Positions 5,395 through 35,606 of a stretch of 44,181 bases of DNA are shown one piece after another. Each line of letters begins with the position of its first letter. The first letter of the stretch is position 1. The stretch is from a virus. Lineage: Duplodnaviria > Caudoviricetes. The DNA lies in the IMG/VR virus record IMGVR_UViG_3300037742_000022, positions 1 through 44,181 of that record. One strand, written 5' to 3'. The notes under the pieces are model-generated. The model saw nothing but the letters and a program-made list of their open reading frames with translations, did no database searches and was not told where the DNA came from. A program made the translations under genes and the position numbers.

Positions 5395-5397
5395 GGT

Positions 5398-5949: not shown

Positions 5950-5957
5950 CGTGTTAG

Positions 5958-6427: not shown

Positions 6428-6433
6428 GCGGCG

Positions 6434-13846: not shown

Positions 13847-14877
13847 CCCCTCCCCCGAACCCCCTTGTGCCTGTGTGTGGTGATGCGCGGCTGCGTGAGG
13901 CGCTGGAACAGTTGCGCAGCTACAACGTGGACATCGCAGCAGGCCGCATCAATTACCGCCCGCAAGATCACATCGACGTGATCGACCGCGCCCTCCTATC
14001 CCAGCACGAGCCGCAACGCGGCGAGACCTCCCCCGCACAGGAGCAGCCTGCGGGCGATGCTTTCGACTTCCGCGCCCATTTGCAGCGGCAGCGTGATTGG
14101 TCCTGCAAGACATTTGGCCCCGGCGCGCGCACTGCTGGCGTGATCGACCACATCCGCAAGGAATTGCGCGAGATTGAGGCCGACCCTGCTGACGTGTCGG
14201 AATGGATCGACGTTGCCATTCTCGCGCTCGATGGTGCGTGGCGTGCGGGCTCATCGCCGGACGATATCATTGGTGCGCTGGTCGCAAAGCAGACGAAGAA
14301 CGAAACCCGCGTGTGGCCGGATTGGCTCACCATGCCGGCGGACAAGGCAATCGAGCACGACAGAAGCAAAGACTCGCAGCCTGCGGTGAGTGCGCCGGTG
14401 TCGGCCCTTGCTCGACGCGTGGTGTCCCATCTTGATGATGGGTCGCTCGACACTTCGCGACTGCCCGGAACGATGGGTGACGACTTGCGCGCGTTGCGCG
14501 AATGCCTCGCCCGCCGCCAAAGCGCACTCCGGACCGACGACCATCCGCCCAGCAGCGAGACGGCGGGGGCATGGGCCAACTCGTCAAACCCTGACGACGT
14601 AATTTCCAACGCCAGAAAGAATCGCCTGTCTGAGAACAATGGGTCGCCGGGAAAAACGTTAGCCGCCTTGTTTTCGATTCCACTATTCCACCACCCCGCC
14701 CCGATGGCGCCCCAGCCGAGCGAGTCCGATGCGCGGGATGCGGCGCCGAAGTGTCAGCGTTGCAACGGTAGCGGCGAGTACTGCCTTGGCGGGCGTAGTG
14801 CGCACCCATCGAATTGGCGGAAGTGCGAAGACTGCGCCGCCATCGCGGGGCGTACGGGCAAGGGGGAGGGGCAATGA
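13843..14877 (+). CDS. DUF550 (dATP/dGTP pyrophosphohydrolase-like) domain protein with a C-terminal zinc finger
   Basis: HLQRQRDWSCKTFGPG..GVIDHIRKELREI..EWIDVAILALDGAWR..KQTKNETRVWPDW; C-terminal CQRCNGSG..CEDC. Confidence 0.8.
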   Translation: MTPPPNPLVPVCGDARLREALEQLRSYNVDIAAGRINYRPQDHIDVIDRALLSQHEPQRGETSPAQEQPAGDAFDFRAHLQRQRDWSCKTFGPGARTAGVIDHIRKELREIEADPADVSEWIDVAILALDGAWRAGSSPDDIIGALVAKQTKNETRVWPDWLTMPADKAIEHDRSKDSQPAVSAPVSALARRVVSHLDDGSLDTSRLPGTMGDDLRALRECLARRQSALRTDDHPPSSETAGAWANSSNPDDVISNARKNRLSENNGSPGKTLAALFSIPLFHHPAPMAPQPSESDARDAAPKCQRCNGSGEYCLGGRSAHPSNWRKCEDCAAIAGRTGKGEGQ

Positions 14878-18189: not shown

Positions 18190-18701
18190 TACTTGCCCTG
18201 CATCACTCGGACGCCGGACTCTGCGGCGACTGCGGCCCATCCGTCGACGCACTCGTCGCGCTCGATCTGCAGCTCTCCGACCCATCCAAGAACTCGTTGC
18301 AGACTTTCGCGGCGTAGTCGGTCTTGTTCTGCAGCCTGGGCGGCGGTGGCTGCGTCAGCGGACAGTCGCCCGGTTTCACAGCCTGCCCACTGGCTGCGCA
18401 AGCGCACAGTGCCGTCGACAAGACCAGCAGCAATGCGATCCGCATTGGCCTGCACATTCTTCCTCTCCTGCTCGTGGTGTTCCTCGACGCCGCGCAGACG
18501 TGCCGCCTGTGCGATCTCGATGGCCCGAACGTCGGCCGCGCGGGCAATCGTTGCCAGCGCATCGGCCGCTTCGTACTCTGCGGTGCGCGCGTCGTAGCCT
18601 TCCCGGCGCACGTCAGCGCGCCACACCCCGTAGGCAAGCCATGCGCCAGCGACGATGCCGGCGACGATCAGGGCTTTGGCCCACAGGGGGATGATGGTCA
18701 T
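18189..18701 (-). CDS. Rz-like inner-membrane spanin (170 aa)
   Basis: N-terminal transmembrane segment WAKALIVAGIVAGAWLAYGVW, coiled coil, GTVRLR..C; contains an embedded lipoprotein ORF. Confidence 0.8.
   Translation of the reverse strand: MTIIPLWAKALIVAGIVAGAWLAYGVWRADVRREGYDARTAEYEAADALATIARAADVRAIEIAQAARLRGVEEHHEQERKNVQANADRIAAGLVDGTVRLRSQWAGCETGRLSADAATAAQAAEQDRLRRESLQRVLGWVGELQIERDECVDGWAAVAAESGVRVMQGK
18203..18445 (-). CDS. Rz1-like outer-membrane lipoprotein spanin (80 aa), nested in Rz
   Basis: MRIALLLVLSTALCAC lipobox and Pro-rich CPLTQPPPP, in an alternative frame inside Rz. Confidence 0.8.
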   Translation of the reverse strand: MRIALLLVLSTALCACAASGQAVKPGDCPLTQPPPPRLQNKTDYAAKVCNEFLDGSESCRSSATSASTDGPQSPQSPASE

Positions 18702-18910
18702 GCTGCCGCTCCGAATGCAGCCCTTACGCGCTTTTCGTTGTATCGGGCCTGATCGGGATCGATGGTGTAGTCCTGACACGCCTCGCACCAATGGCCCAGC
18801 AGTCCTTCAACAACCACGGACTGGTCATCCCGCTTGAACGTGCCCGCACGGGATCGTTCCTCGGTCATGCCCGTCTCGCAGATGCCGCATCGTGGGGCCA
18901 GCGTGAACAT
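18698..18910 (-). CDS. MqsA/YgiT-type zinc-ribbon protein without an HTH (70 aa)
   Basis: CGIC..GM....TF....VVVEGLLGHWCEAC....D pattern matches the MqsA N-terminal domain. Confidence 0.7.
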   Translation of the reverse strand: MFTLAPRCGICETGMTEERSRAGTFKRDDQSVVVEGLLGHWCEACQDYTIDPDQARYNEKRVRAAFGAAA

Positions 18911-21209: not shown

Positions 21210-21377
21210 ATGAGGTATGCTTTCGGCATGGGTGCAATCATCGGGTTACCAGTCGCGGTACTGTTCGGGATTGTCGCAGGATTCGCCATCGGCGGTTTGC
21301 TGCTCGGCTTGCCGCTGGTATGGGCTTGGATGTTCATTCGGCAGCACCTACCACGTCGCGCAGCCAGGCGGCGTTGA
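21210..21377 (+). CDS. Counter-oriented small membrane protein (55 aa)
   Basis: MRYAFGMGAIIGLPVAVLFGIVAGFAIGGLLLGLPLVWAWMF is almost entirely hydrophobic. Confidence 0.45.
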   Translation: MRYAFGMGAIIGLPVAVLFGIVAGFAIGGLLLGLPLVWAWMFIRQHLPRRAARRR

Positions 21378-24300
21378 ACTTCCGCTGCGCCTCCTCACGC
21401 TTCTTCGACTCGGCCAACATTTGCTTGTCGCGCGCGCGGGTTTCTGCAGTCGGAATCAGGCTGGCCGGCGTCTTGCCGTAGGCGTCACGCATCGCCTCAT
21501 TACGCGCACGCACGGCTTTCTCGGCGTCCTTGTAGGCGTCGAACATCGAGCCCGGCACAGCGACAACCTGCGGCCGACCGTCCGACACGATGATTGAGCC
21601 GGGCGCCTGCCCGTTCTGGCCCTTGTTCTTGCGCCGCCGGAAAGCGACGCCAGATAGCTCCGGGGATGCACGCAGCATCGCTTCCGCCTTCGCCTCGCCG
21701 TCGCGCTCGAAGGTGTCGCGCAGTCGCTCCAGCGATCGATTCAGCGCGTCGGAGCGTTCGTAGTAGAGGGACTGCTGCGCGGCCTGCTCGTTAACCTTGG
21801 TGGCGAAGCGCGAAACGATCGGCACGTCGCGCATCGTCACTGGCGCATCGCCCGCGGCCTTCTCGCCCAAGGTGGCCACGTCGATCACGAACTTGCCGGC
21901 GCCGCCGGTCACCTCGCCCAGCAGGTACTCGATGTCCTCCGGCGCGTGGTCAAACCACGACATCGGCGGCGGGGTGTATTCGTCGCCACCGCCCACACGG
22001 TTTAGCCCGGTGGCCGTGAGCTTGAACAGCTCCAGCGTGTCCGGCCGGCCGATGCTTGCACGAGGAACATCGAACTTGCCGTAGGGGTTCTCCTGCCGGA
22101 TCTGCCGGCCGAAGTCGTTGCGGTTCGTCTGGATGTTCGTCGGGATGCGCAGCACGGTAGGCAGGAAGCCCATCGCGCCGTCGCCGATCGGCACCGGCAT
22201 GAACGATTCCGTGGCAGCAGACAAGATATCCGCCGTCAGCTTGCCGGCGCGGTTCTCCGGCCGATCCTCATCGCTCACCACGGCAGCGGCAGTGCGGCCG
22301 GCCATGTAGGTGAACAGGTTGAATCCGTAGGGCATCGGGATCGTCAGGATGTGCTCACCACCCAGCGGCAGGACGATGTTGCGGCGCTTCACATGGTCCG
22401 GAACCTTGTTCCACATCGACTCGCCGTCGTCGTCTTCCATGCCGAGCATGGCCATGGTGCCGGCGACCTGGATGCCAGCCAGCGCGCCGAGGTAGGCGTA
22501 GACCTTTGGCTTGCGCAGAAGCGTGCCAGTGCGGACGGCGCCCTGCGTCGCTGCGTTGTAGAACAGGAACCACGCGTTTAGCGCAGACCCAGACGAGCCC
22601 TTTCGGTTGAAATTCACCGTCAGGTTCTTGGCGTAGATCGCCGCCTTGTCCACCGACATGCCGCGCTTGCGCAGCGTCACGTAGGCGCTCAAGCGCAGCG
22701 CGTTCTCGACAGAGTCGTTGACCGCGGCCACGGCGTCGCCGACCACCCGCGTCGCCCCGGCCAGGCCCGTGGGGGAATAGCCGGTCAGCCGGCCCTTGCC
22801 GATCTTCGCCTGCAAGTCCTCGACCGACGGCATCGAGACATAGCCCGTCTTGCCGCCCGCCTCCGCAAACTCGCGCGCCCACGTATCCCACACGCCCGTC
22901 CCGAGCCTGTTCGTGGCGCTGCGGAACGATGCGATCGCAGCCTTCGGGTAGTTCAGCGCGGCGTCCAGCGCGGCCAGCTCGCCATGCTCCACGGCCAAGC
23001 CCGTCAGTCCGAACAGCGCGTCACGCGATGCGTTGACCGGGACGAACGCCGGGTTGTACTGCGTCAGCACCGCGGAGAAATAGCGATTGATTTTTCCGGC
23101 CGCGCGCGTCACCGCGTTCAACTGGTCGATGCCGACGTTGTTGAGCGCCTGCGCGAGCGGCTGGTTGTTGATCTGCACCTTGTAGGTCTGGCCCTTGAGC
23201 TTGACCGCGACGATGCTCGGATCGCTCCAGTCCTGCACCACGGCCTCGTAGACCTCGCCGTTCGCATCGACCTTGCGTTCCGTCTGCACCGGCTCGACCT
23301 GCCACAGCGCCGGGTTCGGGTTCGCCAGTACGATCCGCATCACGGCGCGCCCGACCCGAGCCTTCTCAGCCAAGATGATGCCGCGTTGTGCGTCGCCGAT
23401 GACCTCGCCCAAGATGTTCTGTGCGCGGTTGCCGGCGCCGCGACCCAAGGCCTGCTGCACCGGGGAACGGCGGGTGTCGACGCCGCGCCCTGCACTGCCT
23501 CCGGCGTTCTGGAAATCGGTTTCCTTCGTCGCCTTGCCACGCAACGGGACGTAGTGCTTGTACTGCGCATCCATCGTGTCGAACGCTTCCTGCGTGATGA
23601 GCCCGGCATCGAGCAGGCGCTTGCGGTTGGCTCGCGTCATCGCGTCCACGCGCTTTGCCAGCGGCTCCAGCGCCGACCTATCGGCGGCCGCAAGGATCTT
23701 ATCGGCCTCCGCGTTCGTCATGCCAGAACCGCCGTCCTGCATCGCGTCGTTGATCGAGGCGATCTGCGCGTTGCGCTCCTTGGCGTGCCGCGCGTACAGG
23801 TATTCTTCCAGTGTCTCCGTCTTGACCTTGGCGTCGCGCATGGCCTTTACCAGCGGCTCGACCTGCGTGCGCTCCATGGCGTCGATGGCATTCGACACGC
23901 GGCCGTGCATCAGGTTCTCGACCTGGTAGACGTTCTGCACGTCCGGCAAGTCACGGCCAAGCTGCTCGGCAAGCTGGGACTGGACATCCGCCCATGCCGT
24001 CATCTTGTCCTGCAACACGGCGCGGGCGCGCTTCCTCGCGCCTTTGCGGCCTTCCCACACGGACTCGTCGTAGTTCCAGCCGGGGGTTCCACGCGCCACC
24101 GGGAGCACGCCAGCAGCGATGCCACGGCGCTGGTCGGCCTCGATCTCGGCCTGCGTGCGGGTGCGGCGGGATTCGAGCGGCGTCTGCGTCTGATCTGCCG
24201 AGGAATCCTCGGGGGGTGCGGCGCGCTCGCGCTCCATCCGCGCCCACACGGATTCCTGAATTTTCTGGCTGGCGCGCGTGCGTTCGCGGGCCTTGGCCGG

Positions 24301-27300
24301 CGCCGGGTATCGGCTGCGCCACTGGTAAACAAGCTCGGTCCCGATCCCTTGGCGGCGGTAGGCGCGGTCAACCACCAGCGTCTCGCCGCTGTTGTAGCTC
24401 GCCACGACCCTATCGCCATCGAACACCGCGGCGCCGTCAGGCGAATACTTTGCGGTCAGGCCATCGCCGACCTGGAACGGCTCGGCCGCCACATCGGCGA
24501 GGGAAGAATAAGCGCGCGGCTTGAGATCGGCCGCGTTCGCGCTGGAAGTGATCTTCGGGTTGCCGATGAACTCCTCCCGCGTCATGCGCGACTCGGCCCG
24601 GCGATTCATTGGGTCGGCGTCGTACTCGGCGCGGGTGGCGGGTTCAATTTCAGCGCCAGGCCAGTTACGGCGCGCGCGCTCCAGGGCATGCGGCTTGTTG
24701 AGCCCCATGATCCCATCCACCATCGATTCCCCATCTTCGAACGTGACGCGCACCGGCTGGAAGAACTTGTATCCCTGCTCGCGGTACTCCTTCTGTGGGC
24801 CTTCGCGACGGAAGCCCATGAGGCTGTCCGGCGCTTTCTCGTAGGCACGCGACTGCGGCGACTTGCTCACAGCCGGCGCACCACGCTGCGGCACAGACGC
24901 GGCGCCGTCCTTCACGTAGCGCCACGCGCCCTCGATCAGCGCGTACACGTCCTCGTCGCTGAATGGCTCACGCTGCGCTTCGGTGCCGCGCAGACGCGCC
25001 ACGGCTTCGTTAAGCGCAGCCTTCAACTGCTGCACGAGGCGAGCGACGTAGCCCGCCACCGTCGCGCGCTGCGCCTGCGGCACCTTCACGCCGTAGCGCG
25101 ACTCGATCTCGCCGTAGTTCCCGGTGCGGACAGCGGCGGCCAGTTCGGCAATCGCTTCCTCGGTCGCCTGCGTGGCGCTGTAGCCCTCGGCTTTCTGGAT
25201 CGCGTCAGCCACTGCGGCAATCGTCGGGTTCTGGCGTGCGCGGCCGATCGTCGCGGCGAAGGCTTGGAACGCCTTGCCTCGATCCGCTTCCTGCCCCATC
25301 AGCATCCCGCGCAGACCGACATGGCCGGCGCGCTCGTGAAATGCGACCCACACCGCACGATCAGCCGTCTCGACCTGATCCTCGAAGATGTAGGACTGCC
25401 CGGTTTCCGGGTCGAAGAATCCTTCCGTCCGGTCGTTCAGCGGGCCGACGCGCGCGGCAACATCGGCGGGCAAGCTGGCCTTGGACGGCAGGACGTTGGT
25501 GTCGCGCGCGGCTGGGCCGAGCGCCTTGGACACGGCATCGCGCATCGGTGATGGTGCGGCGGTGCCGGGTTGCTGCGCGCGGGAGAATGGTGGCGCCATG
25601 GGATCAGTCCAATCCGCCCCACCCTGCCGGTCGGCCTCGGCGAAGCGGCGCGCATGGTCGATGAACCGCTGATCGCGAACGCCCAGCTTCTCACCGCGCT
25701 CGAACTTATCAAAGGCAGATCGGGCCTGTGCCTCGTTGATCGGGTCCGGGCGGTCGCGCCAGAACGACGAGAACCCGCCATTGACCCGCGGGCGGCCGAC
25801 CCACGACGTGCGCGCAACAACATCACCGCCCTTGCCACCATCTTCCTCGATGTCGCGGATGATCTTGCCGCCGCGCTGATCCCAGCCGATCTCGTCGCGG
25901 TAGGCAAGGATGCTGGCGGTGTCGGGCGCTACTTCGGCTTGCGCGTTTCCGGCAGGTACTGCCTGGCCTGTTCCGCCAATCGCTGCTGCGTCTCCTGCTG
26001 CTGCCGGCGCAATTCCTCCATCTGCTTCTCCGGCGACAGGTGATCCACGCCCAAGCGTTTCAGCCTCGATTCGCTGCTCATACGGTTCCCCTTTCTTGCG
26101 TAGTTCGACCTGCGTGTCTGCGTTGCGCAGGATGTCCCCGATCTTCTGCCCCGGCAACACTTCGCTCGTGCCGTAGTGCAATCCTACGCCCGGCGCCGCC
26201 CCTTTCGGATGCGGCAGGTCTGCAAACTCTTGCGTCTGCGCGGCAAAGCTGTCACGAGCGCGCGCCATGGCAGCGTCGACCGTGGGCTTGTCCGCGCCCT
26301 GGACGATGAAGCTGATCTCGTCGCCGCCCTTGCGGATGCCGACAGCCGCGCCCAAAGGCTCCAATTCTGCGCGCACGGTGTCGGCAAAACGCTTGAGGTA
26401 AGGGTCAGCACCAGACGCGCCCAGCTTTGCATTGAGCCCTCCGAGATTGGTCAGGTCGGTTTCCACGTAGACCGCCGGCTGGCCGCTTTCCTGCGCCGCG
26501 GTGATCGTTGCGTCCAGTTCCTCCGGGCGATACAGGCCCGTGACGCGATCGCGCGGGAGCGGCTTGCGCATGCGCGCGCGCACAGCGTCTATCTGCTCTG
26601 GCGGCAGCGACAGTTCGGCAGCCAGTTCCGCGGCGTCGCGCTCGAAGGCGGCGGATGCGCGGGCGTCCGGGTCAATGCTCAACGGCGGGGCGGCATCTGG
26701 CTGCGCTGGCGCCGAGGTTTCACGCGGAGCCAGTCGTGCCTGCGCCTCGGCCGGCGTCAGCTTGGCAATCTCGCTGCGCGTCATGCCCTGCGCCAGCAAT
26801 GCCTCGCGCATCGGGCGCGTGACCATGATCGGCACTTCGGGAGAAGCCGCCAACGGGTCAGCAGGCAGTGGCTTCCTGCCCTTCTTCGCCAAAGCGGTGC
26901 TGATTTGCTCTGGCGTCATGGACCCAATCAAATCAGGCGTATACCCAAGACTCCGCAGATAGTCTCGATTTGATTCGTCGTTTGTCATCCCTTCGTACTT
27001 CGGAACTTCGACGAATGCTGCTGATTTTACCGGCGCATCCTCGGGCAAGGTCGCCGCCTGCGCCGGGCCGGTGGGGATGCGGGCATCGGGAAGGGGAGCC
27101 TGCGGCGCAGGCGGCGAGGGGGTCGGAGTTATGGCAGCAACCATCGCCTCCAGATCGGAAACGTCCTCCGGTGCCGGGCCGGGCATTGGCGCGTCGGGGA
27201 GGTCGTCGAATAGTGGGGCAGCAGGAGTAGCGCGGGGCTTCGTTGCGAATTCGGCCCCGGCAATCGCGGCACCTGGCAGCCCGCCGGCAACCGCGCCGAG

Positions 27301-28422
27301 CGCGCCAGCATTGGCCGCTTCCGTCAGATTCGGATCGCGGCCCATGGCAAGGTCGGCGATGATGTTCTGCCCGCCTTCCTCAACGCCTTCCAGCGGCGCA
27401 TCGGCCACGAAGCCCTTACCGAGCGCGCCGATGAACGACGATGCGTTGCCGCCCAGGGCCCGGGCCAGCACGCCGCCGAGCCCGCCGGTCACGCCGGACA
27501 GCGCGGCCGTGCCAGCCTGCGCGTTCTCCGCGCGGCGCTGCGCCTCGGCCGGGGCCAGCCCTTCGTCCAAGGCTTCCTTGCGGGTGTCGAAATACTGCCC
27601 CTGCGAGACGGCGGCGGAATTGCTCAAGCCGAACCCGAGTGCGTTCGCGAGCTTCCCACCAGCGCCGGCAATGCCTTGTCCGCCGGCAAGCAAGCCGGGG
27701 ATCGCGGGCAGGGATTCCAGAAGCGTGCCGACGATCTGCTCGCCGGTCGGGGCGCCCAGCGTCAGGTCGCCAGCCGTGTCACGTCCGATGATCTTGCTGT
27801 CCAATTCGGACTGGTAGGCCGCCGGCATCAGCGCCGCGGCCCCAGAAATGCCGGGCTCGAACGCATCGCCGATCTCGTTCACCATCTGGTCGCCACGCGC
27901 CATCCCCAGCGGACCAAGCACGAGATCCGGGATGGCGTTCGACGCACGGACGCCCAGCGCCAGCGTGTCGCGGCTGGCGCGCATGATGCCGCGGCCGAGC
28001 TGCAGACCCGACCCAAGCGCGAACTCGCCCATCGTCGTCTCAGGCGTAGTCGCCACATCCGGCAAGTCGTCGAACAGGCTCGCGACCGGCTGGCGCGGGG
28101 CCGAATACTGTTGTTCTTGGTCGTTGTGCAAGCTCTCGGCGTAGGCCGTCGCCTCGTCTGGCGTCTTGAACTTGCCGAGAAACTGGCCGGTGCGGCGGTA
28201 TTCCTGGATCGCGTCATCGTCGGACAGCACGCGCCCGTCGCCGCTGACCGTTGGAATCAACACTTCCTCGCCGTCGAAATTGACCGACATGCTGCGCACG
28301 GTACTGATCGACCCGTCAGGGTTGCGCACCACTGGCCGGTTCGCCAAGTCGATATTGCCGAGCCCATACGCCGCCGGCCGCTTGGCGGAAACATTCGGCA
28401 GATCGTCGAACAGGCCGGCCAT
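21334..28422 (-). CDS. Giant polyvalent ejection (internal virion) protein with GGDEF-like, zincin, GNAT and LPD38 modules (2362 aa)
   Basis: Last gene of the ejection-protein cluster. Motifs: DRVTGLY..DLTNLGGLN..GAD..RKGGDEI; HERAGH..EEAIAE; RRQGIGTEL; C-terminal NFNRKG..FLFYNA..WNKVPDHVKRRNIVLP..IPMPYG. Confidence 0.85.
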   Translation of the reverse strand: MAGLFDDLPNVSAKRPAAYGLGNIDLANRPVVRNPDGSISTVRSMSVNFDGEEVLIPTVSGDGRVLSDDDAIQEYRRTGQFLGKFKTPDEATAYAESLHNDQEQQYSAPRQPVASLFDDLPDVATTPETTMGEFALGSGLQLGRGIMRASRDTLALGVRASNAIPDLVLGPLGMARGDQMVNEIGDAFEPGISGAAALMPAAYQSELDSKIIGRDTAGDLTLGAPTGEQIVGTLLESLPAIPGLLAGGQGIAGAGGKLANALGFGLSNSAAVSQGQYFDTRKEALDEGLAPAEAQRRAENAQAGTAALSGVTGGLGGVLARALGGNASSFIGALGKGFVADAPLEGVEEGGQNIIADLAMGRDPNLTEAANAGALGAVAGGLPGAAIAGAEFATKPRATPAAPLFDDLPDAPMPGPAPEDVSDLEAMVAAITPTPSPPAPQAPLPDARIPTGPAQAATLPEDAPVKSAAFVEVPKYEGMTNDESNRDYLRSLGYTPDLIGSMTPEQISTALAKKGRKPLPADPLAASPEVPIMVTRPMREALLAQGMTRSEIAKLTPAEAQARLAPRETSAPAQPDAAPPLSIDPDARASAAFERDAAELAAELSLPPEQIDAVRARMRKPLPRDRVTGLYRPEELDATITAAQESGQPAVYVETDLTNLGGLNAKLGASGADPYLKRFADTVRAELEPLGAAVGIRKGGDEISFIVQGADKPTVDAAMARARDSFAAQTQEFADLPHPKGAAPGVGLHYGTSEVLPGQKIGDILRNADTQVELRKKGEPYEQRIEAETLGRGSPVAGEADGGIAPAAAGDAAAIGGTGQAVPAGNAQAEVAPDTASILAYRDEIGWDQRGGKIIRDIEEDGGKGGDVVARTSWVGRPRVNGGFSSFWRDRPDPINEAQARSAFDKFERGEKLGVRDQRFIDHARRFAEADRQGGADWTDPMAPPFSRAQQPGTAAPSPMRDAVSKALGPAARDTNVLPSKASLPADVAARVGPLNDRTEGFFDPETGQSYIFEDQVETADRAVWVAFHERAGHVGLRGMLMGQEADRGKAFQAFAATIGRARQNPTIAAVADAIQKAEGYSATQATEEAIAELAAAVRTGNYGEIESRYGVKVPQAQRATVAGYVARLVQQLKAALNEAVARLRGTEAQREPFSDEDVYALIEGAWRYVKDGAASVPQRGAPAVSKSPQSRAYEKAPDSLMGFRREGPQKEYREQGYKFFQPVRVTFEDGESMVDGIMGLNKPHALERARRNWPGAEIEPATRAEYDADPMNRRAESRMTREEFIGNPKITSSANAADLKPRAYSSLADVAAEPFQVGDGLTAKYSPDGAAVFDGDRVVASYNSGETLVVDRAYRRQGIGTELVYQWRSRYPAPAKARERTRASQKIQESVWARMERERAAPPEDSSADQTQTPLESRRTRTQAEIEADQRRGIAAGVLPVARGTPGWNYDESVWEGRKGARKRARAVLQDKMTAWADVQSQLAEQLGRDLPDVQNVYQVENLMHGRVSNAIDAMERTQVEPLVKAMRDAKVKTETLEEYLYARHAKERNAQIASINDAMQDGGSGMTNAEADKILAAADRSALEPLAKRVDAMTRANRKRLLDAGLITQEAFDTMDAQYKHYVPLRGKATKETDFQNAGGSAGRGVDTRRSPVQQALGRGAGNRAQNILGEVIGDAQRGIILAEKARVGRAVMRIVLANPNPALWQVEPVQTERKVDANGEVYEAVVQDWSDPSIVAVKLKGQTYKVQINNQPLAQALNNVGIDQLNAVTRAAGKINRYFSAVLTQYNPAFVPVNASRDALFGLTGLAVEHGELAALDAALNYPKAAIASFRSATNRLGTGVWDTWAREFAEAGGKTGYVSMPSVEDLQAKIGKGRLTGYSPTGLAGATRVVGDAVAAVNDSVENALRLSAYVTLRKRGMSVDKAAIYAKNLTVNFNRKGSSGSALNAWFLFYNAATQGAVRTGTLLRKPKVYAYLGALAGIQVAGTMAMLGMEDDDGESMWNKVPDHVKRRNIVLPLGGEHILTIPMPYGFNLFTYMAGRTAAAVVSDEDRPENRAGKLTADILSAATESFMPVPIGDGAMGFLPTVLRIPTNIQTNRNDFGRQIRQENPYGKFDVPRASIGRPDTLELFKLTATGLNRVGGGDEYTPPPMSWFDHAPEDIEYLLGEVTGGAGKFVIDVATLGEKAAGDAPVTMRDVPIVSRFATKVNEQAAQQSLYYERSDALNRSLERLRDTFERDGEAKAEAMLRASPELSGVAFRRRKNKGQNGQAPGSIIVSDGRPQVVAVPGSMFDAYKDAEKAVRARNEAMRDAYGKTPASLIPTAETRARDKQMLAESKKREEAQRKFNAAWLRDVVGAAE

Positions 28423-28425: not shown

Positions 28426-29298
28426 TCAGTTCCCCATCTCGATTCCCAATTCTCGCAGACGCGCGCGCACAGCAACAGGGTCTTTCCCCGCCTCGATCGC
28501 GGCGCGTGCCTGCGCGATCGCCATCTGCCTCGCCTGCGGGTCGCGGAACCGCGCCGGGTCCAGATCGGCGCGCGTCACCGGGCCGGCAGGCAAAGCGCCC
28601 TGCGCGCCCGGGTCGACGAACACGACATCGCCCGGATTCGTGAAGGTGTTGGCCGGCGTGCCGAGCGGCATCGAGGTTTCGGCAGAGACGCCGGGTGTCG
28701 TAGCTGCGGCAGGCGTGGTGACGGCTGCAACCTTCGGAGCGAATCCGCCGGCCGCCGCCTGCACCGCGTACTTGCCGCCCAGCGCCAATTCCTTTTGCGC
28801 CTGCGCGGCGTACCGACCAGCAGATGCTTCGCGCTCCGCGATGCGGGATTGCCCCACGTCCGTCGCATACATCGGCTGCTGCGGCCCCAGCATCGGGTTG
28901 AACGCGGTGTCGCCGCTGATCTTGGTCAGGTCTTGCGGGCCACCCAGGCTGATCAGATTGGCGTTTGCGCCAGCCAGGTCGCCGCCAAGTGCAGCACCGC
29001 GCGCATCGCGGCGCGTGTTGAACTCGCCGAGATTCAGCAGGCCCTGCGTGAGCTGCGCCGTGTTGCCGCCGCCGGCCTGAAAAATCCCCGCCGTGTCGCC
29101 CAACCCCAGCGGGGCCAAAGTCTGCCCGATGCCCTCCAGCGCAATGCGCTGGTTGCGCGCCATCGTGGCGTCTTCCATCGCCTTGTCGCGGCTGTAGCCT
29201 GCGTTCTGCGCGCGGTAGTTGCGCAGAAGCTGATCCTCGTAGGCCGCGTTGCCGCCGCCTCCGCCGAGCGCTGCGCCGAGCTTCGCCCATCCTTCCAT
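28426..29298 (-). CDS. Internal virion / ejection protein (290 aa)
   Basis: Ala/Gly/Gln-rich; start MEGWAKLG by TGATG coupling. Confidence 0.7.
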   Translation of the reverse strand: MEGWAKLGAALGGGGGNAAYEDQLLRNYRAQNAGYSRDKAMEDATMARNQRIALEGIGQTLAPLGLGDTAGIFQAGGGNTAQLTQGLLNLGEFNTRRDARGAALGGDLAGANANLISLGGPQDLTKISGDTAFNPMLGPQQPMYATDVGQSRIAEREASAGRYAAQAQKELALGGKYAVQAAAGGFAPKVAAVTTPAAATTPGVSAETSMPLGTPANTFTNPGDVVFVDPGAQGALPAGPVTRADLDPARFRDPQARQMAIAQARAAIEAGKDPVAVRARLRELGIEMGN

Positions 29299-29951
29299 CA
29301 CCATGTCCTCGGTTGGTACACGTAGCCGCTGGCGTAGGGGCCGGGCTGTGTTGCGGCGCCAGCAGCGCCGCCCATTGCAGCGCCGCCACCCATTGATCCG
29401 GCATAGGCACTGGCTGCGGTCGCAGCGGCATCGATCCACGGATTGCGGCGGATGGCGCGCAGGCGCAAGTCGTCGATGAAGGACTGCCCTTGTGCCGCGC
29501 GGGATTCGAGATTGATGTCAGTCCCAAGAAAGCCCACGTCCCGCGCTTCACCCTGTCTCTGCATGGTCGGCGCATCGATGCGGCTCAGAAGCCCGGCGTT
29601 CGTGGCGCCGTAGTCCGACACGCCCTGCTCTGCGATCGCGGCATCGGACTGGAACGCGGACCCCCCGGGGCCGTCGAGCCCGGCGCCTGCCATCGCCTGC
29701 TTGCGGCGAAGCTGGTCGGCGTAGCTCTGCAAGGCTTCCGCGCGCTCGTCGGCCGCGTTGCTGCCTTCAAGCTTCTTGACGTTCTCGTTGACCTTGGCGT
29801 CGATGTCACGCTGGCGACGGGATTGGTTGCGGATGCTGTCCGCTGCAGCACTGTCCTGCCGGCGCGCGGTCTGACGGGTGTTGTAGGCCTGCGCGCCTGC
29901 AGCAGCGGCAGCAACGGCAAGCGCGGCGATGGTCGAGGTTGCAAGGGCCAT
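29298..29951 (-). CDS. Internal virion / ejection protein (217 aa)
   Basis: Hydrophobic Ala-rich N-terminus, helical middle and Gly-rich end, typical of podovirus pilot proteins. Confidence 0.7.
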   Translation of the reverse strand: MALATSTIAALAVAAAAAGAQAYNTRQTARRQDSAAADSIRNQSRRQRDIDAKVNENVKKLEGSNAADERAEALQSYADQLRRKQAMAGAGLDGPGGSAFQSDAAIAEQGVSDYGATNAGLLSRIDAPTMQRQGEARDVGFLGTDINLESRAAQGQSFIDDLRLRAIRRNPWIDAAATAASAYAGSMGGGAAMGGAAGAATQPGPYASGYVYQPRTW

Positions 29952-29954
29952 GGC

Positions 29955-30401
29955 TCAGTCCAGGATCTTCGAGTAGGAGGATTCGCAGAGCGTAAAGCCC
30001 ATGCGCTCGTAGAGAGCGCCGGCCTGCGGCGGGCTGTTTGCGAGGTGCGTCATCTGGATCATGCTCGCGCCGGCTTCGCGGCACGCGGGCTCCACCGCTT
30101 CGAGCAAGGCTCGACCGACGCCGGACCGCTGCGCGCCAGGATGCACCCACCACATAATCTCGTGCGCCGACTTCATCGCGGCGTTGAACGGGAACGGCGC
30201 CACGATCAGGCCGACCATGCCGAGCAGTTCGCCATTCTCCTGCGCCACCAGCAGCACGCCGTCGCGCATCACGTTGATCAGCGCCCGGGCAGACCCCTGG
30301 CAATACGGCGAGAACGCCGCATAGTGCGTGCTGTCGTAGAACGCGCGGCCCATGGCGACGATGTCGGCCACGTCCTCGTCGATGGCGCTGCGAACGATCA
30401 T
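29955..30401 (-). CDS. GNAT-family acetyltransferase (148 aa)
   Basis: IVRSAIDED..LLVAQENGELLGM..WWVHPGAQRSGVGRALL..LYERMGF. Confidence 0.85.
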   Translation of the reverse strand: MIVRSAIDEDVADIVAMGRAFYDSTHYAAFSPYCQGSARALINVMRDGVLLVAQENGELLGMVGLIVAPFPFNAAMKSAHEIMWWVHPGAQRSGVGRALLEAVEPACREAGASMIQMTHLANSPPQAGALYERMGFTLCESSYSKILD

Positions 30402-31009
30402 CCGCCGTATCCGTAGTTGGCCTGCTGGCCGTAGAGGTTGAACCCGGTTTCCTGATTTGCACGACGGCGTTGTGACGCCTCGCGGGACTGGTTCAGGAAC
30501 TCGGCGAAGGTGCCGCCAAATGCGCCGATGTCCGACACGTTGTTCGCGGATCGGGCCGCTTCCAGGTTCGTGCGCAGCCCGGCGGCGGCTTGCGATGCGG
30601 CCGTGGTGGCGTCGAGCCCGGACGTGGCAAGCTGGATCAGGCGGGCGCGCGCATCCTGATCGGAGGCCTCGATGTCTGCACCGACAGCGCGGGACCGGCG
30701 ATCGACTTCGAGAACGCCCTTGTTGTACTGCCGGCCCAGTTCCGCACTCTGGTCGATCTGCGTGCTGCCGCCGACCAGGCCGTTGCGCGCAAGCGCGAAC
30801 TTGAGCTGGCGGTCCTGCAGGCTCTTGTCCTCGTCGAGCCCTTGTAACCCGAGATCACGGTTCGCTGAAACGGCGTCGGCGATGTCGGCCTGTCGCTGCG
30901 GCGAGTCGAATACCTGGTTGACTCGCGACTGCGTTTGCCGGATCGCGGCGATCCTCGCATCCTCGGCTTGCTGAGCCGCGCGCTGGGCGGAATTGCTGCT
31001 CGAACCCAT
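30398..31009 (-). CDS. Internal virion protein (203 aa)
   Basis: MGSSS start, helical, LKFALARNGLVGGS; ejection-cluster position. Confidence 0.7.
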   Translation of the reverse strand: MGSSSNSAQRAAQQAEDARIAAIRQTQSRVNQVFDSPQRQADIADAVSANRDLGLQGLDEDKSLQDRQLKFALARNGLVGGSTQIDQSAELGRQYNKGVLEVDRRSRAVGADIEASDQDARARLIQLATSGLDATTAASQAAAGLRTNLEAARSANNVSDIGAFGGTFAEFLNQSREASQRRRANQETGFNLYGQQANYGYGG

Positions 31010-31012
31010 GAC

Positions 31013-31489
31013 TCACCTCACCTTTGCGAACGAGACGGCATCAGAGCCGTCCGCGAAGAATCGACGATGCACGCCTTCCTGCACCATGCCAAGGCCACGC
31101 GCGTACCAGTCGCATGCCTCACGCCTCTCGGGAAGAACATACGCCTGCACACGCGCCACGCCTTGCTTGAGCGCGCTATCGATGATCCTGCGCGCAGTGC
31201 GCGTGATGCGGTCGCCGTAACGCAGCCAGCCAGATTCCGTCGCCAGCATCCAGCATTCCAGCGTGTTCATGCGCACCGGCTCCAGTCCGCCGGCCACATA
31301 GATATGCCCGTTGCGGTCGAGCAGACAGAAATGCGGGCCGGGGATGGCTTTCAATCCCGCCACACACGCATCCTCCGACCACGCGTGCGCAGTCAGCGCC
31401 TCCCACTGCCGGCGCTCGCTGGCGGACGCGCCAGCGGCCAGGGCAGCGTAGTCCTGCGGCCGCGGGTACGAGAGCGTGCCGTCGGCCAT
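31013..31489 (-). CDS. GNAT-fold virion morphogenesis protein (T7 gp13-like position, 158 aa)
   Basis: AGG..ECWMLAT..RVQAYV..W..GLGMVQEG..FFADGSDAVSF. Confidence 0.65.
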   Translation of the reverse strand: MADGTLSYPRPQDYAALAAGASASERRQWEALTAHAWSEDACVAGLKAIPGPHFCLLDRNGHIYVAGGLEPVRMNTLECWMLATESGWLRYGDRITRTARRIIDSALKQGVARVQAYVLPERREACDWYARGLGMVQEGVHRRFFADGSDAVSFAKVR

Positions 31490-32010
31490 CAGCGGCCCAC
31501 CGAAAAATCGTGCAGCGTGACGTTCACCGACAGCAACTCCCACGCTTGCGAATCCTCATCCGGTAGGAAGCGGATGCACGGGGAAATGGACGGGGCCGAG
31601 AACGGCATTGGCACCATCATGCCGGGAATCGTGTCGTCCACATCGAGCTGGTACGGCGGTGTCTCGATGGCAGGCTGCCGCTCGTCGTAGAAGAAGCTGA
31701 TTTGTGCGTCCTGCGTGGCGATGACATCGAAACCCTCGACCATCTTGGTCACGCCAGGATTGCCGAAGTCCAGCCACGGCCACTGCACCATGCCGTTGAA
31801 ATACGTCGTCTGTGCGCCGTCGCCGTCGGTGTATTCGTCCGCCTGCACGCCTTCGGTCACGACAGACACCGAATCAACGCCGTCGATGGTGTGGCGCACG
31901 TACAGCCTGTTGTTGAGCTGCGCGAATTCGGTGATGTCGTAGGGGAAGAAATAGCGCGACCACGAACCGCCGTTCGGGCCTTGCATGTAGACGTAGACGA
32001 TCGTGCTCAT
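31489..32010 (-). CDS. Tail nozzle/tubular protein, C-terminal part (173 aa)
   Basis: Beta-rich VYVY..WSRYFFP..VQWPWLDFGNPGVTKM. Confidence 0.6.
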   Translation of the reverse strand: MSTIVYVYMQGPNGGSWSRYFFPYDITEFAQLNNRLYVRHTIDGVDSVSVVTEGVQADEYTDGDGAQTTYFNGMVQWPWLDFGNPGVTKMVEGFDVIATQDAQISFFYDERQPAIETPPYQLDVDDTIPGMMVPMPFSAPSISPCIRFLPDEDSQAWELLSVNVTLHDFSVGR

Positions 32011-32585
32011 GTCGCCCTCCCGAGCTGCCACTGCAAGCGCTGGCCGGTGTTCATGGCGATCTTCTCCAGCGTGCGCCCAGCCCCGACAAACTGCAGGGGA
32101 TAGTCTACGCCGTAGCGGTCGCGTTGCATCCGCATGTAAAGCTCGCCGGTGAGAAGATACCCGAGGATCACGTCGGAGCTTGTGCTCTGCATCGCGCGCT
32201 TGTCGTCATGGGTGACGCGCGGGTTGATTGCACCAAACGGCAGGCTGGTGAATATCTGCTGCTGCGTCAGGGTATCGAACCACCAGAATTGTGCCTGCCC
32301 GTTGCGCACAAACGCGATCGTGGGGTTCATGTTTGTATCGAATGCCAACGACAGCTCCGTGATTCCGGACAACGAGAACTGCACCGTATCCGGCACGTCA
32401 GCCGCGCCGAGCATCACGTCGTCGCCGTCGAGGTAGACGGTCCACTGTTTCACGCGCAGCCCTTCCGACCCATCCCGCAGTGCCACGCCGCCAAGCTCCG
32501 AATCGACGAGGGGATCGAACGCGATCGCCTCCCCGTCGATGTAGGGCGCCGGAATGGCTGTCGTGCTGAGGACGTTCTGCGGCAT
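32007..32585 (-). CDS. Tail-associated protein (192 aa)
   Basis: Beta-rich; start MPQNVLST by TGATG coupling. Confidence 0.65.
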   Translation of the reverse strand: MPQNVLSTTAIPAPYIDGEAIAFDPLVDSELGGVALRDGSEGLRVKQWTVYLDGDDVMLGAADVPDTVQFSLSGITELSLAFDTNMNPTIAFVRNGQAQFWWFDTLTQQQIFTSLPFGAINPRVTHDDKRAMQSTSSDVILGYLLTGELYMRMQRDRYGVDYPLQFVGAGRTLEKIAMNTGQRLQWQLGRAT

Positions 32586-33484
32586 CACAGTGTTTTTCTC
32601 GCCCATGAAATGCGGAATGTCAGCTCCAGAATCTTTGTGCTGTCCTTCGGGATCGACGGCGTGAACCCGATCTGGAACACGCCCCGCGTGGTCGCGATAT
32701 CCACCGCGCCAACCCCGCCCACTGCGTTGCCAACGGCGATGCTCCACGAGAGTTTCGCGTCGCGATAGTAATCCCCGGCGCTGTAAGTGAGCAGCGTTCC
32801 CGACGCGGTTCCGCTGGCGCTGTCAGCCGGCAACCCGGTGACCGCGCCCAATGGGCCGCTGTAGGTTCGATTGAGCGATCCGCCGCCGCCGAAAGCAAAC
32901 GCCTCCCCCACCGGAGACCAGACGCTGCTCGTCACGAGGGCGGCGCGCACCACGTAATCGTAATCGACGCCGCTGATGGTGATCTCGTCCTCCACGTCTT
33001 CGAGCGGCGGGTATTGCCGGCACTCGTAGGTGACATCGAGAAATTCGTCCGCCAGGACCGTGATCGTCGTTGGCGTTCCGCCGCCATCCAGAATCAGCGC
33101 GCGGGAAAACAACGACCCCGTGGCACCGGTACGCCCCACACCAACCTCCGACAGATTGCCAGCGGCCGCGCCCTGAGCAAACCGGTACACCCTCCGCTGC
33201 CATCCGTAGTACGGGGCAGAGCCCTGGGCGTTCCCGGTGTCTGAAATAACGTTGTTGGTGCCTGCGACGTAGGAGACGAGGGCGGTCTGCGCGTTAGAAG
33301 GTGCGGTGCTTCCGGAGCCGACCTGACACGCCGCAAGGTGCCCGCCCGCGCTCTCGCCGAGGTAGTCCAGGCCCTGGTCAAGGATCAGGTTGGGGAACCA
33401 GTCGGCCAACACGCGCCGCGAGCCGTCCGCCTTGACGGCCTCCAGCTTGAACAGGGCGGCGAATTGGCATGGGATCGAGATCAT
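32585..33484 (-). CDS. Tail-associated protein (299 aa)
   Basis: WFPNLILDQGLD..VGSGSTAP..QTAL..GNLSEVG..LFSRALI pattern of phage tail-fibre-related proteins. Confidence 0.7.
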   Translation of the reverse strand: MISIPCQFAALFKLEAVKADGSRRVLADWFPNLILDQGLDYLGESAGGHLAACQVGSGSTAPSNAQTALVSYVAGTNNVISDTGNAQGSAPYYGWQRRVYRFAQGAAAGNLSEVGVGRTGATGSLFSRALILDGGGTPTTITVLADEFLDVTYECRQYPPLEDVEDEITISGVDYDYVVRAALVTSSVWSPVGEAFAFGGGGSLNRTYSGPLGAVTGLPADSASGTASGTLLTYSAGDYYRDAKLSWSIAVGNAVGGVGAVDIATTRGVFQIGFTPSIPKDSTKILELTFRISWARKTL

Positions 33485-34821
33485 TCTTCCTCTCCGGGGA
33501 GCGCCAGCCAGAATTGACCGGCGCCTGGGTAATAGGTGCCGACGGCGCGGCGCCCCTGCGCTTCGAGCCGCGCGGCCGCTTCCTGCACCAGAACGTCAAC
33601 AGGGGCGCCGACATCAGCAGATGCAAGGTTGGTCGAGCCCACCGCAATTCCGACCGTGCGAACGCCGAGTTGTGACAGGAAAAACAGTTCGTCGGCCACG
33701 GCCACGGCCGCATGCTGGTGCGTGGACCCGATGCCGTCCATCTGGTCGAGCAATGCCATGGACGCAGGATCAGGGTCGACCTGCCACATCTGGAAGGTGC
33801 CGGCGTTGTAGACCACGATGTTGCCGCGGTAGATGTTCATCACCGCGGCGTTGTTGGCGTTGGTCTGCTGGATGCCGGTCGGCAAATACCCGGCATCATC
33901 CGCCGTCGACCAGTCGAGCGGGTTGTTCGTAGCGCAGAAGCGCACGATGTCGCCGTCGGCGGCGAACACCTTGGAGGCTGCGATGGCGACCACCCTGGAC
34001 TGCGGACACTTCACGTCCTGGATGTTGAGCCCGAACGCCTCCCACGAAATCGTGTTGTCCGCGACGAAGGCGCCGGGGATCGTGGGCCATATCGGTTCCG
34101 TCGGCCCTGACAGCATCGTCGGGCTGGCCTGCCAGACGACACGCGTTGTCAGCACCGCTTCCCACGTCACCTCGTTGTCGACAACCGTTACACCCAGCGT
34201 CGGCGGCCAGACCGGCTCCTCCGCGCCGGACGTGCCGACATCGGCCTGCACCGCCTTGTAGATCAGCCCGGCAACCGTCGGCTGCGACACCACGTTCCAT
34301 GCGACCGTGTCGACCCATAGTGGGTCGCTGCCGCCGTTGCGGTAGGCTCGGATTGCGACCCGCACGTACGCCGCGCCGCCGGGCGCCAGCGCCGTGACCG
34401 TGGATTGGCGCCACTGCCCGCCCGATCCCGAACTGACCAGCGAGCCGCGATCAAAACTGATCTGCGCGAATGCGTCGTCCAGCCACTCAAGCCCGACGGC
34501 GGCGCCGGCCTCGCCCGATCCGGACGCGCCCTGCTGCACCATGCAGGTTGCGGTGACGGACTGACCAGGCGTCACGACAGCCTCGGTGGTGTTGACCAGC
34601 CGGACATCGACAGCCGTGGCGTTGAAGGTCGCGGACCACGCGCCCTGATACTTGTCGCCGCTGTTGGTGATCGTCCAGCCGGACTCCTTCGTCCAGCCGG
34701 TGTCGCCATCCTCGAACCCGGGATTGACCAGCGCAGTAGATACGGGCGCCGAGATCGTCAGCGGCCGGCACAGCGAGCCCGGGATGTAGGCGAAGCCGGG
34801 TTTCCAGACTGCGACGGTCAT
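33481..34821 (-). CDS. Tail nozzle/tubular protein, middle part, with a carbohydrate-binding-like insert (446 aa)
   Basis: LVNPGFEDGDTGWT CBM-like domain; SG.EEP.WP...G..V.DN...W repeats; propeller-like C-terminal half. Confidence 0.65.
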   Translation of the reverse strand: MTVAVWKPGFAYIPGSLCRPLTISAPVSTALVNPGFEDGDTGWTKESGWTITNSGDKYQGAWSATFNATAVDVRLVNTTEAVVTPGQSVTATCMVQQGASGSGEAGAAVGLEWLDDAFAQISFDRGSLVSSGSGGQWRQSTVTALAPGGAAYVRVAIRAYRNGGSDPLWVDTVAWNVVSQPTVAGLIYKAVQADVGTSGAEEPVWPPTLGVTVVDNEVTWEAVLTTRVVWQASPTMLSGPTEPIWPTIPGAFVADNTISWEAFGLNIQDVKCPQSRVVAIAASKVFAADGDIVRFCATNNPLDWSTADDAGYLPTGIQQTNANNAAVMNIYRGNIVVYNAGTFQMWQVDPDPASMALLDQMDGIGSTHQHAAVAVADELFFLSQLGVRTVGIAVGSTNLASADVGAPVDVLVQEAAARLEAQGRRAVGTYYPGAGQFWLALPGEEE

Positions 34822-35606
34822 TGCTGACGCCTGTTGCCCGGAGGGTAGCGGTCACGGATGGGGCCAGGCACCGGCAGCGAGCCGCCGGGGTTGTCCTGAT
34901 CCGGGTTCGTGTCGCCGGGGATCGGCGCTGCGGCAGGCGGCCCGAGATCCACGTCCTCGACCACCGTGCCGAGATCGTAGGCCGGCCAGATCGGCTCGAC
35001 CTTGCCAGACCGCGGCGTGTCGCCGACCGTCTCGATCGCGGTGTACTTGTAACCGTTCGGCACCGTCGGCTCGATGACATCGTTCAGCGCACGCAGCACG
35101 TCCGGCGCCCACACCGGGGCAGGATCGCCCAGCCGCGTCGCCCGGTACGTGAACCCGTTCGGCGTCGTCGGCACCACGTAATCGCCGATCTGGTACGGCG
35201 TATCGGGCTCCCACTCCACGCCCGGCACCAGCCAGAAGTGGTACAGGTTCCCCGACTCGAACTCGGCCACGACATAGGGCACACCCAAGTACGCGGCCGC
35301 GAAATGGATGGCGGCGATCGGGGAGGCGACAGCGTTCGGGTCGACGATCACCACCGTCTCGAACAGCGGGTTCGTGGGTGTCGACGGCACATGCGAGAAC
35401 ACGAGGAGCCGCTGGTCGAACGCCATCAGCCCCTTGGTCTGCTCCGGCAGCGCGACCACCTCGACGGTGCCCGGGCGCGACTTGACGGTGGCCGACTGCG
35501 TAACGAACCCGTTCTGCAGGTCGTAGAGCGCATCCTCTGGCGCGCCGCCCTTGATGCGCTGCCGGTTGATGCCGCGGTTCGCGCGGTTGAGGACCTGCGT
35601 CCTCAT
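34818..35606 (-). CDS. Tail nozzle/tubular protein, N-terminal part (262 aa)
   Basis: Start MRTQVLN; LYDLQNGFV..VKSRPGT; W.P.T.Y..G..V.PT repeats. Confidence 0.65.
   Translation of the reverse strand: MRTQVLNRANRGINRQRIKGGAPEDALYDLQNGFVTQSATVKSRPGTVEVVALPEQTKGLMAFDQRLLVFSHVPSTPTNPLFETVVIVDPNAVASPIAAIHFAAAYLGVPYVVAEFESGNLYHFWLVPGVEWEPDTPYQIGDYVVPTTPNGFTYRATRLGDPAPVWAPDVLRALNDVIEPTVPNGYKYTAIETVGDTPRSGKVEPIWPAYDLGTVVEDVDLGPPAAAPIPGDTNPDQDNPGGSLPVPGPIRDRYPPGNRRQQ

Follow-up and report, generated by a model that had tools for sequence, protein, structure and literature searches.

The window analysed here is the 44,181-base virus record IMGVR_UViG_3300037742_000022 (Caudoviricetes) at its full length, which has a 127-base terminal overlap and a CheckV completeness of 59%. 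Its minus strand carries a gene for a 2362-residue virion protein of the polyvalent, ejection type, and within this giant lies a domain whose predicted structure is a genuine, remodelled GGDEF fold, followed by a conserved 50-residue gene nested in the +1 frame. We propose that the domain is injected with the giant as a purine nucleotidyltransferase and that the nested out-of-frame gene encodes its inhibitor, a reading to which we give a probability just short of even. The design of an injected cyclase is known; new here are a distinct clade with a remodelled active site and a hidden partner gene. The argument depends on the following features.

21334..28422, minus strand: gene of the 2362-residue polyvalent (ejection-type) virion protein carrying the GGDEF domain
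26551..26679, minus strand: helical extension N-terminal to the DxVTG turn, residues ~582-624, conserved across the clade
26089..26550, minus strand: GGDEF-fold domain of the NLGGLN/HPK clade, residues 625-778, with key residues D625, D656, N659, N664, D673, RKGGDE 697-702, D769 and K776
26188..26229, minus strand: clade-specific insert, residues 732-745 (H738, K740, G745)
26088..26093, minus strand: Shine-Dalgarno-like AAGGGG, 6 nt ahead of the nested ATG, within the codons after K776
25929..26081, minus strand: nested open reading frame (ORF) of 50 residues, +1 frame, ATG at 26081

All seven GGDEF motifs reported in the initial annotation were recovered, in order, in residues 625-778 (26550-26089) of the ORF 21334..28422, and the fold read from them was borne out by profile and structure comparison. 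With a Pfam GGDEF cut-off of 23.8 bits, the full protein scored 34.6 and the domain excised from it 40.6; NCBIfam TIGR00254 scored 30.3, under its own cut-off of 37.4. An AlphaFold model of the domain, built from a 16-sequence alignment, reached a predicted local distance difference test (pLDDT) of 92 and a predicted template modelling score (pTM) of 0.86. Foldseek matched this model to WspR (TM 0.72-0.76) and PleD (TM 0.69-0.70), with SadC and DgcR matched too, and VIA-align placed WspR at Z 18.9 with a root mean square deviation of 3.4 over 161 aligned residues, the top 33 rows all being GGDEF or diguanylate cyclase chains. Neither Cas10 nor mCpol is among the 50 VIA matches listed, a number that does not exclude either. 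A chance motif match was excluded by the fold together with family conservation, and a class III adenylyl cyclase was rejected at Z of at most 11.1 (the best adenylyl cyclase) against 18-19 for GGDEF; the domain's GVGLHYG strand is reminiscent of the RIGIHTG of that class. Membrane anchoring adjoining the domain was likewise rejected, there being no convincing transmembrane segment.

For residue mapping, DgcR numbering was taken from PMC8041772 and transferred by spacing. The marks of a diguanylate cyclase are present, namely the metal Asp D656, GGDE at 699-702 and the gamma-phosphate Lys K776, and the guanine-reading Asn and Asp (DgcR N182 and D191) are retained as N664 and D673. The Lys over the alpha-phosphate (DgcR K179) is absent, G661 standing in its place, and the domain has no RxxD feedback site (I-site), all of which agrees with what had been read before. 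Moreover, the second gamma-phosphate ligand (DgcR R293) is replaced by P780, and so are the canonical cross-dimer contacts (D183 by A665, H187 by A669, Y286 by E773, R147 by P633), only the equivalent of D282, D769, being retained. A Hypr type, which would have Ser or Thr at the base-specificity site, was ruled out by the Asp found there (D673).

Homologues of the domain have in common DxxNLGGLN, R.GGDE and the HPK insert. The clade profile gave 306 cluster representatives at E<=1e-30, of which the best 150 were retrieved. In a quick tree without bootstrap (65 sampled of 234 clade domains and 30 canonical domains, the latter top Pfam scorers from five genomes and E. coli, both sets picked by profile), a long branch split the clade from canonical GGDEF with a Shimodaira-Hasegawa-like approximate likelihood ratio (SH-aLRT) of 100. 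Conservation was counted in 111 non-redundant single copies. Residues for a domain's own substrate are kept (D656 in 108/111, N664, the N182 equivalent, in 111/111, GGDE in 108/111 and K776, the K289 equivalent, in 105/111), which points to selection on catalysis, and the domain is likely an active purine nucleotidyltransferase as judged from this conservation. Near-invariant residues new to the clade are N659, G662 and G745 (111/111 each), H/N738 (107/111) and K740 (99/111). At the base-reading site, Asn was found in 75/111 and Asp in 34/111, as in the window phage, with Ser or Thr in 0/111. Eight residues past the turn Asp, an invariant Arg that we equate with DgcR R147 has become Ala, Gly, Ser or Pro in the clade, and the RxxD I-site, present in 23/30 canonical domains, was found in 0/111 single-copy relatives. 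The ~45-residue helical extension ahead of the turn is conserved across the clade and is a candidate for a built-in dimerisation element; K740 of the insert is a candidate substitute for the lost catalytic Lys.

Clade domains occur in polyvalent, eCIS-core (extracellular contractile injection system) and Fic-containing proteins, all contexts of conflict, with eCIS-core fusions in P0024 and P0091, and an inorganic pyrophosphatase shares the chain in four relatives (P0004, P0057, L004 and L006, phage giants among them). In viral contigs a single-domain query gave no match, and clade loci surfaced only through an alignment query. In a T7-like layout (L001:9038-10969) the domain resides in a 643-residue protein of the internal-virion slot and not in the giant, indicating that more than one ejection-block gene has received it. 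In a Chiayiivirga genome bin (L010:8031-14331) the homologous giant gene appears split into several ORFs, with the domain and the nested gene open. We describe a separate, large GGDEF clade, apparently uncharacterised; in the open-access literature we found no description of the NLGGLN/HPK clade and no experimental test of a phage-injected nucleotide-signal synthase.

More than one clade copy was found in 63/176 proteins, and tandem proteins of ~520 residues exist. Among the 61 tandem pairs left after near-duplicate removal, with 'intact' defined by D656/D701/E702, one copy was degenerate (lacking these residues) in 45, both were intact in 16 and both degenerate in none, in a set ranked by profile score. 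In degenerate copies N659, N664 and N/D673 persist (43/45 each), as does R697 (41/45), and this retention of purine-reading residues suggests a nucleotide acceptor; K776 remains in 10/45 degenerate copies against 77/78 intact tandem copies, and K/R740 in 35/45 against 78/78. Pairs with one degenerate copy thus show that a single catalytic site can suffice in the clade, and a symmetric reaction to cyclic di-GMP (c-di-GMP) is therefore not obligatory; the window protein, with its one copy, would need a homodimer. For one tandem relative with one active copy, structure prediction gave a pTM of 0.74 despite 120/528 low-confidence residues, with two confident helices before each domain, a model consistent with fixed two-domain packing as a pseudo-dimer. 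Foldseek returned single GGDEF chains for it, with no two-domain match among the matches listed. Tandem clade domains in Nocardia and Variovorax proteins (L013, L014, L015, L016 and L060), most of them giant (over 4500-6800 residues where the locus shows), are in some cases accompanied by Fic or sigma-70 region 4 domains, and the nested gene lies between the copies in 4/5.

The ejection complex had been suggested to dimerise the domain; that suggestion appears weak or unneeded, given the clade's own N-terminal helical extension and the tandem relative predicted as a pseudo-dimer.

The nested ORF begins 7 nt beyond the domain as delimited in the initial annotation, which had missed it. Its product reads MSxExRLxRLGxxHL and then a charged tail, probably helical. 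In a survey of 32 loci (21 single-copy with downstream DNA, 7 tandem, 2 cut by a contig end and 2 with weak or partial domains), an ATG ORF lay at the same place in 19/21 single-copy loci, two of these being duplicates or near-duplicates, and after copy 1 in 4/7 tandem loci (L014, L015, L016 and L060, both copies intact); the background for a ribosome site, ATG and ORF of this length was 27/1320 bins. Over the first 15 codons of 20 loci selected for having the ORF, pairwise identity was 41% in the nested frame, which had no stops, against 21% for the host frame; 18 stops were counted in the third frame. At the protein level, in loci not preselected for the ORF, a dipeptide able to spell the nested start followed 93/108 single copies versus a background of 22%. 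Eighteen nested-protein homologues are called as genes in public data, and a profile of 17 homologues, which were gathered with the same study's own alignment so that the test is not fully independent, found the window ORF at E 3e-8 among 12,841 segments, its top 20 matches all lying directly behind a clade domain; it missed the divergent nested ORFs of L004, L006 and L057. On a bacterial contig (L063:5908-7000), directly after aspS, a 206-residue standalone clade enzyme overlaps a 161-residue partner gene, and this free-standing pair, taken with the nested form in giants, points to a mobile cassette that stays nested on insertion into a giant protein.

A frameshift extension was rejected as the origin of the nested ORF, which has its own ATG and ribosome site and is a separate gene in L063. 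Other +1-frame ORFs at 26432-26184, 25841 and 23267 (the last two long) look like GC-rich shadow ORFs. No Pfam family was common to more than one of 20 nested-protein members, and the nested protein had no NCBIfam match and no usable Atlas match; the members aligned with too much variation to serve for a DNA scan. At 25700-26900 no sigma-70 promoter or terminator pattern was found. A GLxPEQ-type motif in the partner resembles the domain's N-terminal helices, an observation that raises the idea of mimicry and may reflect a common helix cap. Overall, a conserved small gene sits directly downstream of the enzyme domain and is tied to it, as in toxin-immunity or toxin-antitoxin-like pairs, and its 50-residue product is a candidate inhibitor or partner of the domain. 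The feedback-insensitive cyclase of the initial annotation stands in so far as the I-site is missing; that it is unregulated is doubtful, because this conserved partner gene follows the domain.

We suggest the following course of events. Late in infection, the giant and the 50-residue protein would both be made from one mRNA, and the latter would bind the domain and prevent two domains from pairing, whereby virion assembly would be protected in the producing cell. The giant would be packaged without the 50-residue protein. After ejection, the domains, possibly released by the HExxxH peptidase described below, would pair through their own N-terminal helices; one domain would activate GTP on Mg with D656, D701, K776 and, in place of the lost Lys, K740 of the insert, and the second would present the acceptor nucleotide via N659/N664/D673. 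The product would be a guanine dinucleotide (c-di-GMP, a linear pppGpG-type molecule or one with an unusual linkage), made without feedback before phage gene expression, and it would interfere with the host's nucleotide signalling or with defence triggered by nucleotides. Domain and partner would travel together as a mobile effector-immunity-like cassette. If this Asp-type copy is active, our judgement puts c-di-GMP as its product at somewhat under one half, another guanine product being expected otherwise; the guanine-reading residues are kept, as the initial annotation had held, and the product is nevertheless uncertain because most canonical cross-dimer residues are replaced clade-wide. The effects on pili, motility or superinfection raised in that annotation found no support in the present analysis.

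An inhibitor was preferred as the partner's role for four reasons. Downstream overlapping gene order and size of this kind are typical of toxin-immunity pairs, which the nested gene fits; clade domains turn up repeatedly in proteins of conflict (polyvalent, eCIS-core, Fic); an enzyme that is expressed late and lacks an I-site has to be kept off by other means; and some tandems have retained the partner.

Several observations weigh against this proposal. The DgcR cross-dimer residues are mostly gone from the single copies (K179 kept in 3/111, D183 in 5/111, H187 in 30/111 and Y286 in 2/111, versus 29-30/30 in canonical domains, all 30 of which have the Lys at the K179 site), with the equivalent of D282 staying in 83/111, so a canonical competent dimer is not to be assumed; the canonical control set, being top Pfam scorers, leans to consensus. 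The nested ORF is missing from 2/21 single-copy loci (L055 and L062). The start signature is not enriched behind tandem copies (15/61 first and 4/30 second copies, background 23%), a pattern equally compatible with an inhibitor and with a dimerising activator. Ranking by profile score left pairs with two degenerate copies under-sampled among the tandems. The single-domain query had no match among 50,697 cultured-phage records (INPHARED), and no activity, product, toxicity, binding or virion detection was found reported for any clade member.

The foremost alternative keeps the same enzyme and delivery and makes the nested protein an activator or dimeriser, packaged or made with the enzyme, the product being ordinary c-di-GMP; we consider it improbable, though it is the reading nearest to the initial annotation and the main rival for the partner's role, since the partner goes with single copies (93/108) rather than with self-paired tandems. 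The partner's tail looks, from its sequence, like a coiled-coil helix, and this copy retains N664/D673 and GGDE. Retention of the partner after copy 1 in the four tandem loci with both copies intact speaks against this alternative, as do its downstream overlapping order, generally typical of toxin-immunity pairs, the loss of the canonical cross-dimer contacts and the Asn, not Asp, at the base-reading site of 75/111 single copies. For the Asp-type copy of the window, GTP specificity in GacA is reported to be driven by Asp at that site (PMC6456294), in favour of this alternative.

A catalytically weak or dead domain, serving as nucleotide binder, decoy or dominant-negative partner of host cyclases, is quite unlikely in our estimation. 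It would account for the replacement of the alpha-phosphate Lys and the second gamma-phosphate ligand (DgcR K179 and R293; PMC8041772) by G661 and P780, and for the score under the TIGR00254 cut-off, but about 95% or more of the 111 single copies retain both metal Asp, the Glu at the fourth position and K776, no tandem examined had lost the metal residues in both copies, and the inorganic pyrophosphatase in the same chain of four relatives (P0004, L004, L006, P0057) also argues for catalysis.

We hold in similarly low regard the transfer of GMP to an acceptor other than a nucleoside triphosphate (protein, RNA end, cofactor or water), or a Cas10/Thg1-like extension of an oligonucleotide, in place of dinucleotide cyclisation. 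In Cas10, one palm activates the triphosphate and the other presents the attacking nucleotide, and the site between Palm1 and Palm2, which makes oligoadenylates, is resembled by the tandems with one active copy (PMC11734703); the triphosphate Lys is lost in degenerate copies, and the GGDEF-like mCpol makes 2',3'-c-di-AMP (PMC12657218). Against this stand the purine-reading residues kept in degenerate copies, which suggest a nucleotide as acceptor, the top structural matches, all of them GGDEF domains, and the single copy of the window protein, of which a homodimer would have two equal sites. The likeness to Cas10 Palm1/Palm2 and mCpol/OptS (PMC11734703, PMC12657218) lies in a related palm fold and in tandem relatives with one catalytic and one binding-only copy, as in Cas10; unlike those systems, the present domain is nearer GGDEF in sequence and fold, has no CRISPR context and is single-copy in the window protein, so the comparison is an analogy only.

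Delivery depends on the giant, in which we further mapped the following.

28105..28359, minus strand: N-terminal domain, residues 22-106, common to podovirus 'DNA transfer' and 'minor structural' proteins
27223..28035, minus strand: Gly/Ala-rich region, residues 130-400, marginally hydrophobic
24868..25545, minus strand: HExxxH-motif region (HERAGH, residues 1029-1034), by motif only
24319..24384, minus strand: GNAT acetyl-CoA-binding-like motif, residues 1347-1368, under the Pfam cut-off
21655..24015, minus strand: conserved C-terminal ejection-protein module, residues 1470-2256, including LPD38 (2003-2203)

Residues 22-106 are 60-66% identical to podovirus proteins labelled DNA transfer or minor structural protein, and an identity of 34% links residues 1470-2220 to the LPD38 giants of Stx phages, with 351 matching records. 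The related phi24B giant gp47 was found in virions by proteomics and has been put forward as an ejection protein (bioRxiv 10.64898/2026.04.10.717836). The 2362-residue giant is likely packed in the virion on the strength of this homology (its N-terminal matches, its LPD38 C-terminus and the virion-detected phi24B giant), and the ejection-protein slot first assigned to it is upheld by both identities, by that giant and by synteny with the podovirus Mae-Yong1326-1. As in polyvalent proteins, several unrelated enzymatic or LPD domains share the chain (GGDEF and LPD38), and the gene is encoded among late virion genes; relatives further carry ART, InPase, ParB, RadC, MuF-C and SNF2 domains. The 'hydrophobic segments' described earlier ahead of the domain do not hold up, the region 130-400 being only Gly/Ala-rich (37% G+A, one marginal hydropathy window of 1.41) and ending ~200 residues before the domain. 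At residues ~485-570 (26713-26970, minus strand), ahead of the GGDEF extension, are two similar short helical repeats, LxxxGxTxxxIxxxTPxxxxxxL-like, with no family match. The HExxxH region, ~250 residues downstream of the GGDEF domain, is probably a polyvalent-type metallopeptidase as judged by its motif, of a class described for polyvalent proteins in PMC5512222; for a zincin-like MPTase domain, the region offers the motif at 1029 and no Pfam match. That the domain is not injected, acting at late expression of the giant gene or being cut off before packaging, is very unlikely: P1 DdrB is processed before packaging (PMC5512222) and the HExxxH region lies 250 residues downstream, but in phage loci the clade domain is located in the ejection block, the related phi24B giant is detected in virions and a late-acting enzyme has no need of fusion to an ejection protein.

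The concept of an injected cyclase is already in print. Iyer, Burroughs, Anand, de Souza and Aravind (2017; PMC5512222) listed GGDEF among polyvalent-protein domains and predicted interference with host nucleotide responses after injection. Their proteins resemble ours in that one giant late-gene chain combines GGDEF with LPD38, an HExxxH peptidase motif and further enzymes; the passages on them there give predictions only, without clade definition or residue analysis, and a term search of that text did not find the nested gene. With PleD, WspR and DgcR (PF00990; PMC8041772), the domain shares the fold, a DxLT-like turn, two metal Asp, the N/D guanine pocket, the GGDE hairpin and the K289 equivalent. 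It differs from them in having replacements at K179, D183, H187, Y286 and R293 and at the invariant Arg that follows the turn (PMC8041772), and in that the clade has the HPK insert and the N-terminal helical extension, no sensor domain, no RxxD and a separate long branch. Variable base-reading and cross-dimer residues and a central GGDE form are shared with Hypr GGDEF and the cyclic GMP-AMP synthase GacA (PMC6456294), which has Ser/Thr at the specificity site, unlike the window copy (Asp) and the clade (Asn in 75/111 or Asp in 34/111). phi24B gp47, likewise an LPD38 polyvalent protein, virion-detected and proposed to be ejected, has no GGDEF listed in the account of it in bioRxiv 10.64898/2026.04.10.717836. 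ICP3 Gp15 is an ejection protein acting against nucleotide-signalled defence, but as described it inhibits the CapV effector directly and makes no nucleotide (bioRxiv 10.1101/2025.07.23.666291). The YIP peptides of PB1-like phages disturb c-di-GMP signalling and are described as expressed peptides that bind a host cyclase, not as a phage-borne enzyme (PMC8085984).

The remainder of the window has the order of a podovirus.

Minus strand: small and large terminase, portal, scaffold, major capsid, adaptor and tail genes, in this order
Minus strand, after the tail genes: two GNAT-like genes, three small Gly/Ala-rich genes, the 2362-residue giant gene, then lysis genes
28426..31543, minus strand: block upstream of the giant gene, with the two GNAT-like and three small Gly/Ala-rich genes

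Mae-Yong1326-1 has matches, in the same order, to the terminase, portal, capsid, tail-tubular, DNA-stabilisation and GNAT genes, and its block likewise closes with a gene, of 2441 residues; the match of the small gene next to GNAT to that phage is weak. By this synteny, the three small Gly/Ala-rich genes are presumed to be smaller ejection proteins. The block resembles the P22 ejection block. GNAT-like genes at 29955-30401 and 31013-31543 (minus strand) stand either side of a small ejection-block gene, and one is annotated in Mae-Yong1326-1. The DNA-stabilisation (nozzle-like) protein is matched by two ORFs, 33481-34821 and, weakly, 31489-32031, with tail-fibre-like genes between (31489-36146, minus strand), and is possibly a split gene. 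Elsewhere, a dATP/dGTP pyrophosphohydrolase domain (13843-14877, plus strand; PF04447, E 1e-25) is a second nucleotide-handling enzyme of the phage. PHROG matches revealed a Mom-like DNA modification protein (7346-7810, plus strand) and a DNA methyltransferase (2910-3719, minus strand), together probably anti-restriction DNA modification. Lambdoid-type replication genes (initiator, DnaC-like loader) occupy 3828-6487, RecT is also in the record, and no tyrosine integrase was found in the whole of it. Amid the lysis genes, a 70-residue ORF (18698-18910, minus strand) has a weak MqsA-type zinc-finger match. Among the public sequencing runs listed as matches, one DNA run has the window sequence and is possibly its source, and no RNA run is listed.

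A wider proposal, which we regard as rather doubtful, is that the giant carries, in virion-borne form, a member of an effector family not described before. This rewired GGDEF nucleotidyltransferase would make a non-canonical nucleotide (linear, mixed-base or oligomeric) via a donor/acceptor pseudo-dimer and would travel as a cassette with its own inhibitor gene, out of frame within the host protein, deployed by phages, eCIS-type proteins and giant Nocardia and Variovorax proteins.

Through the definition of the clade, the domain boundaries including the N-terminal extension and the residues named, the 2017 prediction of an injected nucleotide-signal synthase becomes testable. Small natural versions are easy to express, namely the 206-residue standalone enzyme of L063 and the tandems of ~520 residues, and the L063 pair is the simplest natural test system. 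Precedents exist in Gp15 against nucleotide-signalled defence (bioRxiv 10.1101/2025.07.23.666291) and in phage interference with c-di-GMP (PMC8085984). Its nested, out-of-frame position makes annotation overlook the partner gene. Should the partner be an inhibitor, this would explain how an unregulated signalling enzyme can be built into a virion, and would make it worthwhile to look for hidden immunity genes behind further internal domains in polyvalent proteins. A product other than c-di-GMP would represent new GGDEF chemistry in the nucleotide arms race between phage and host.

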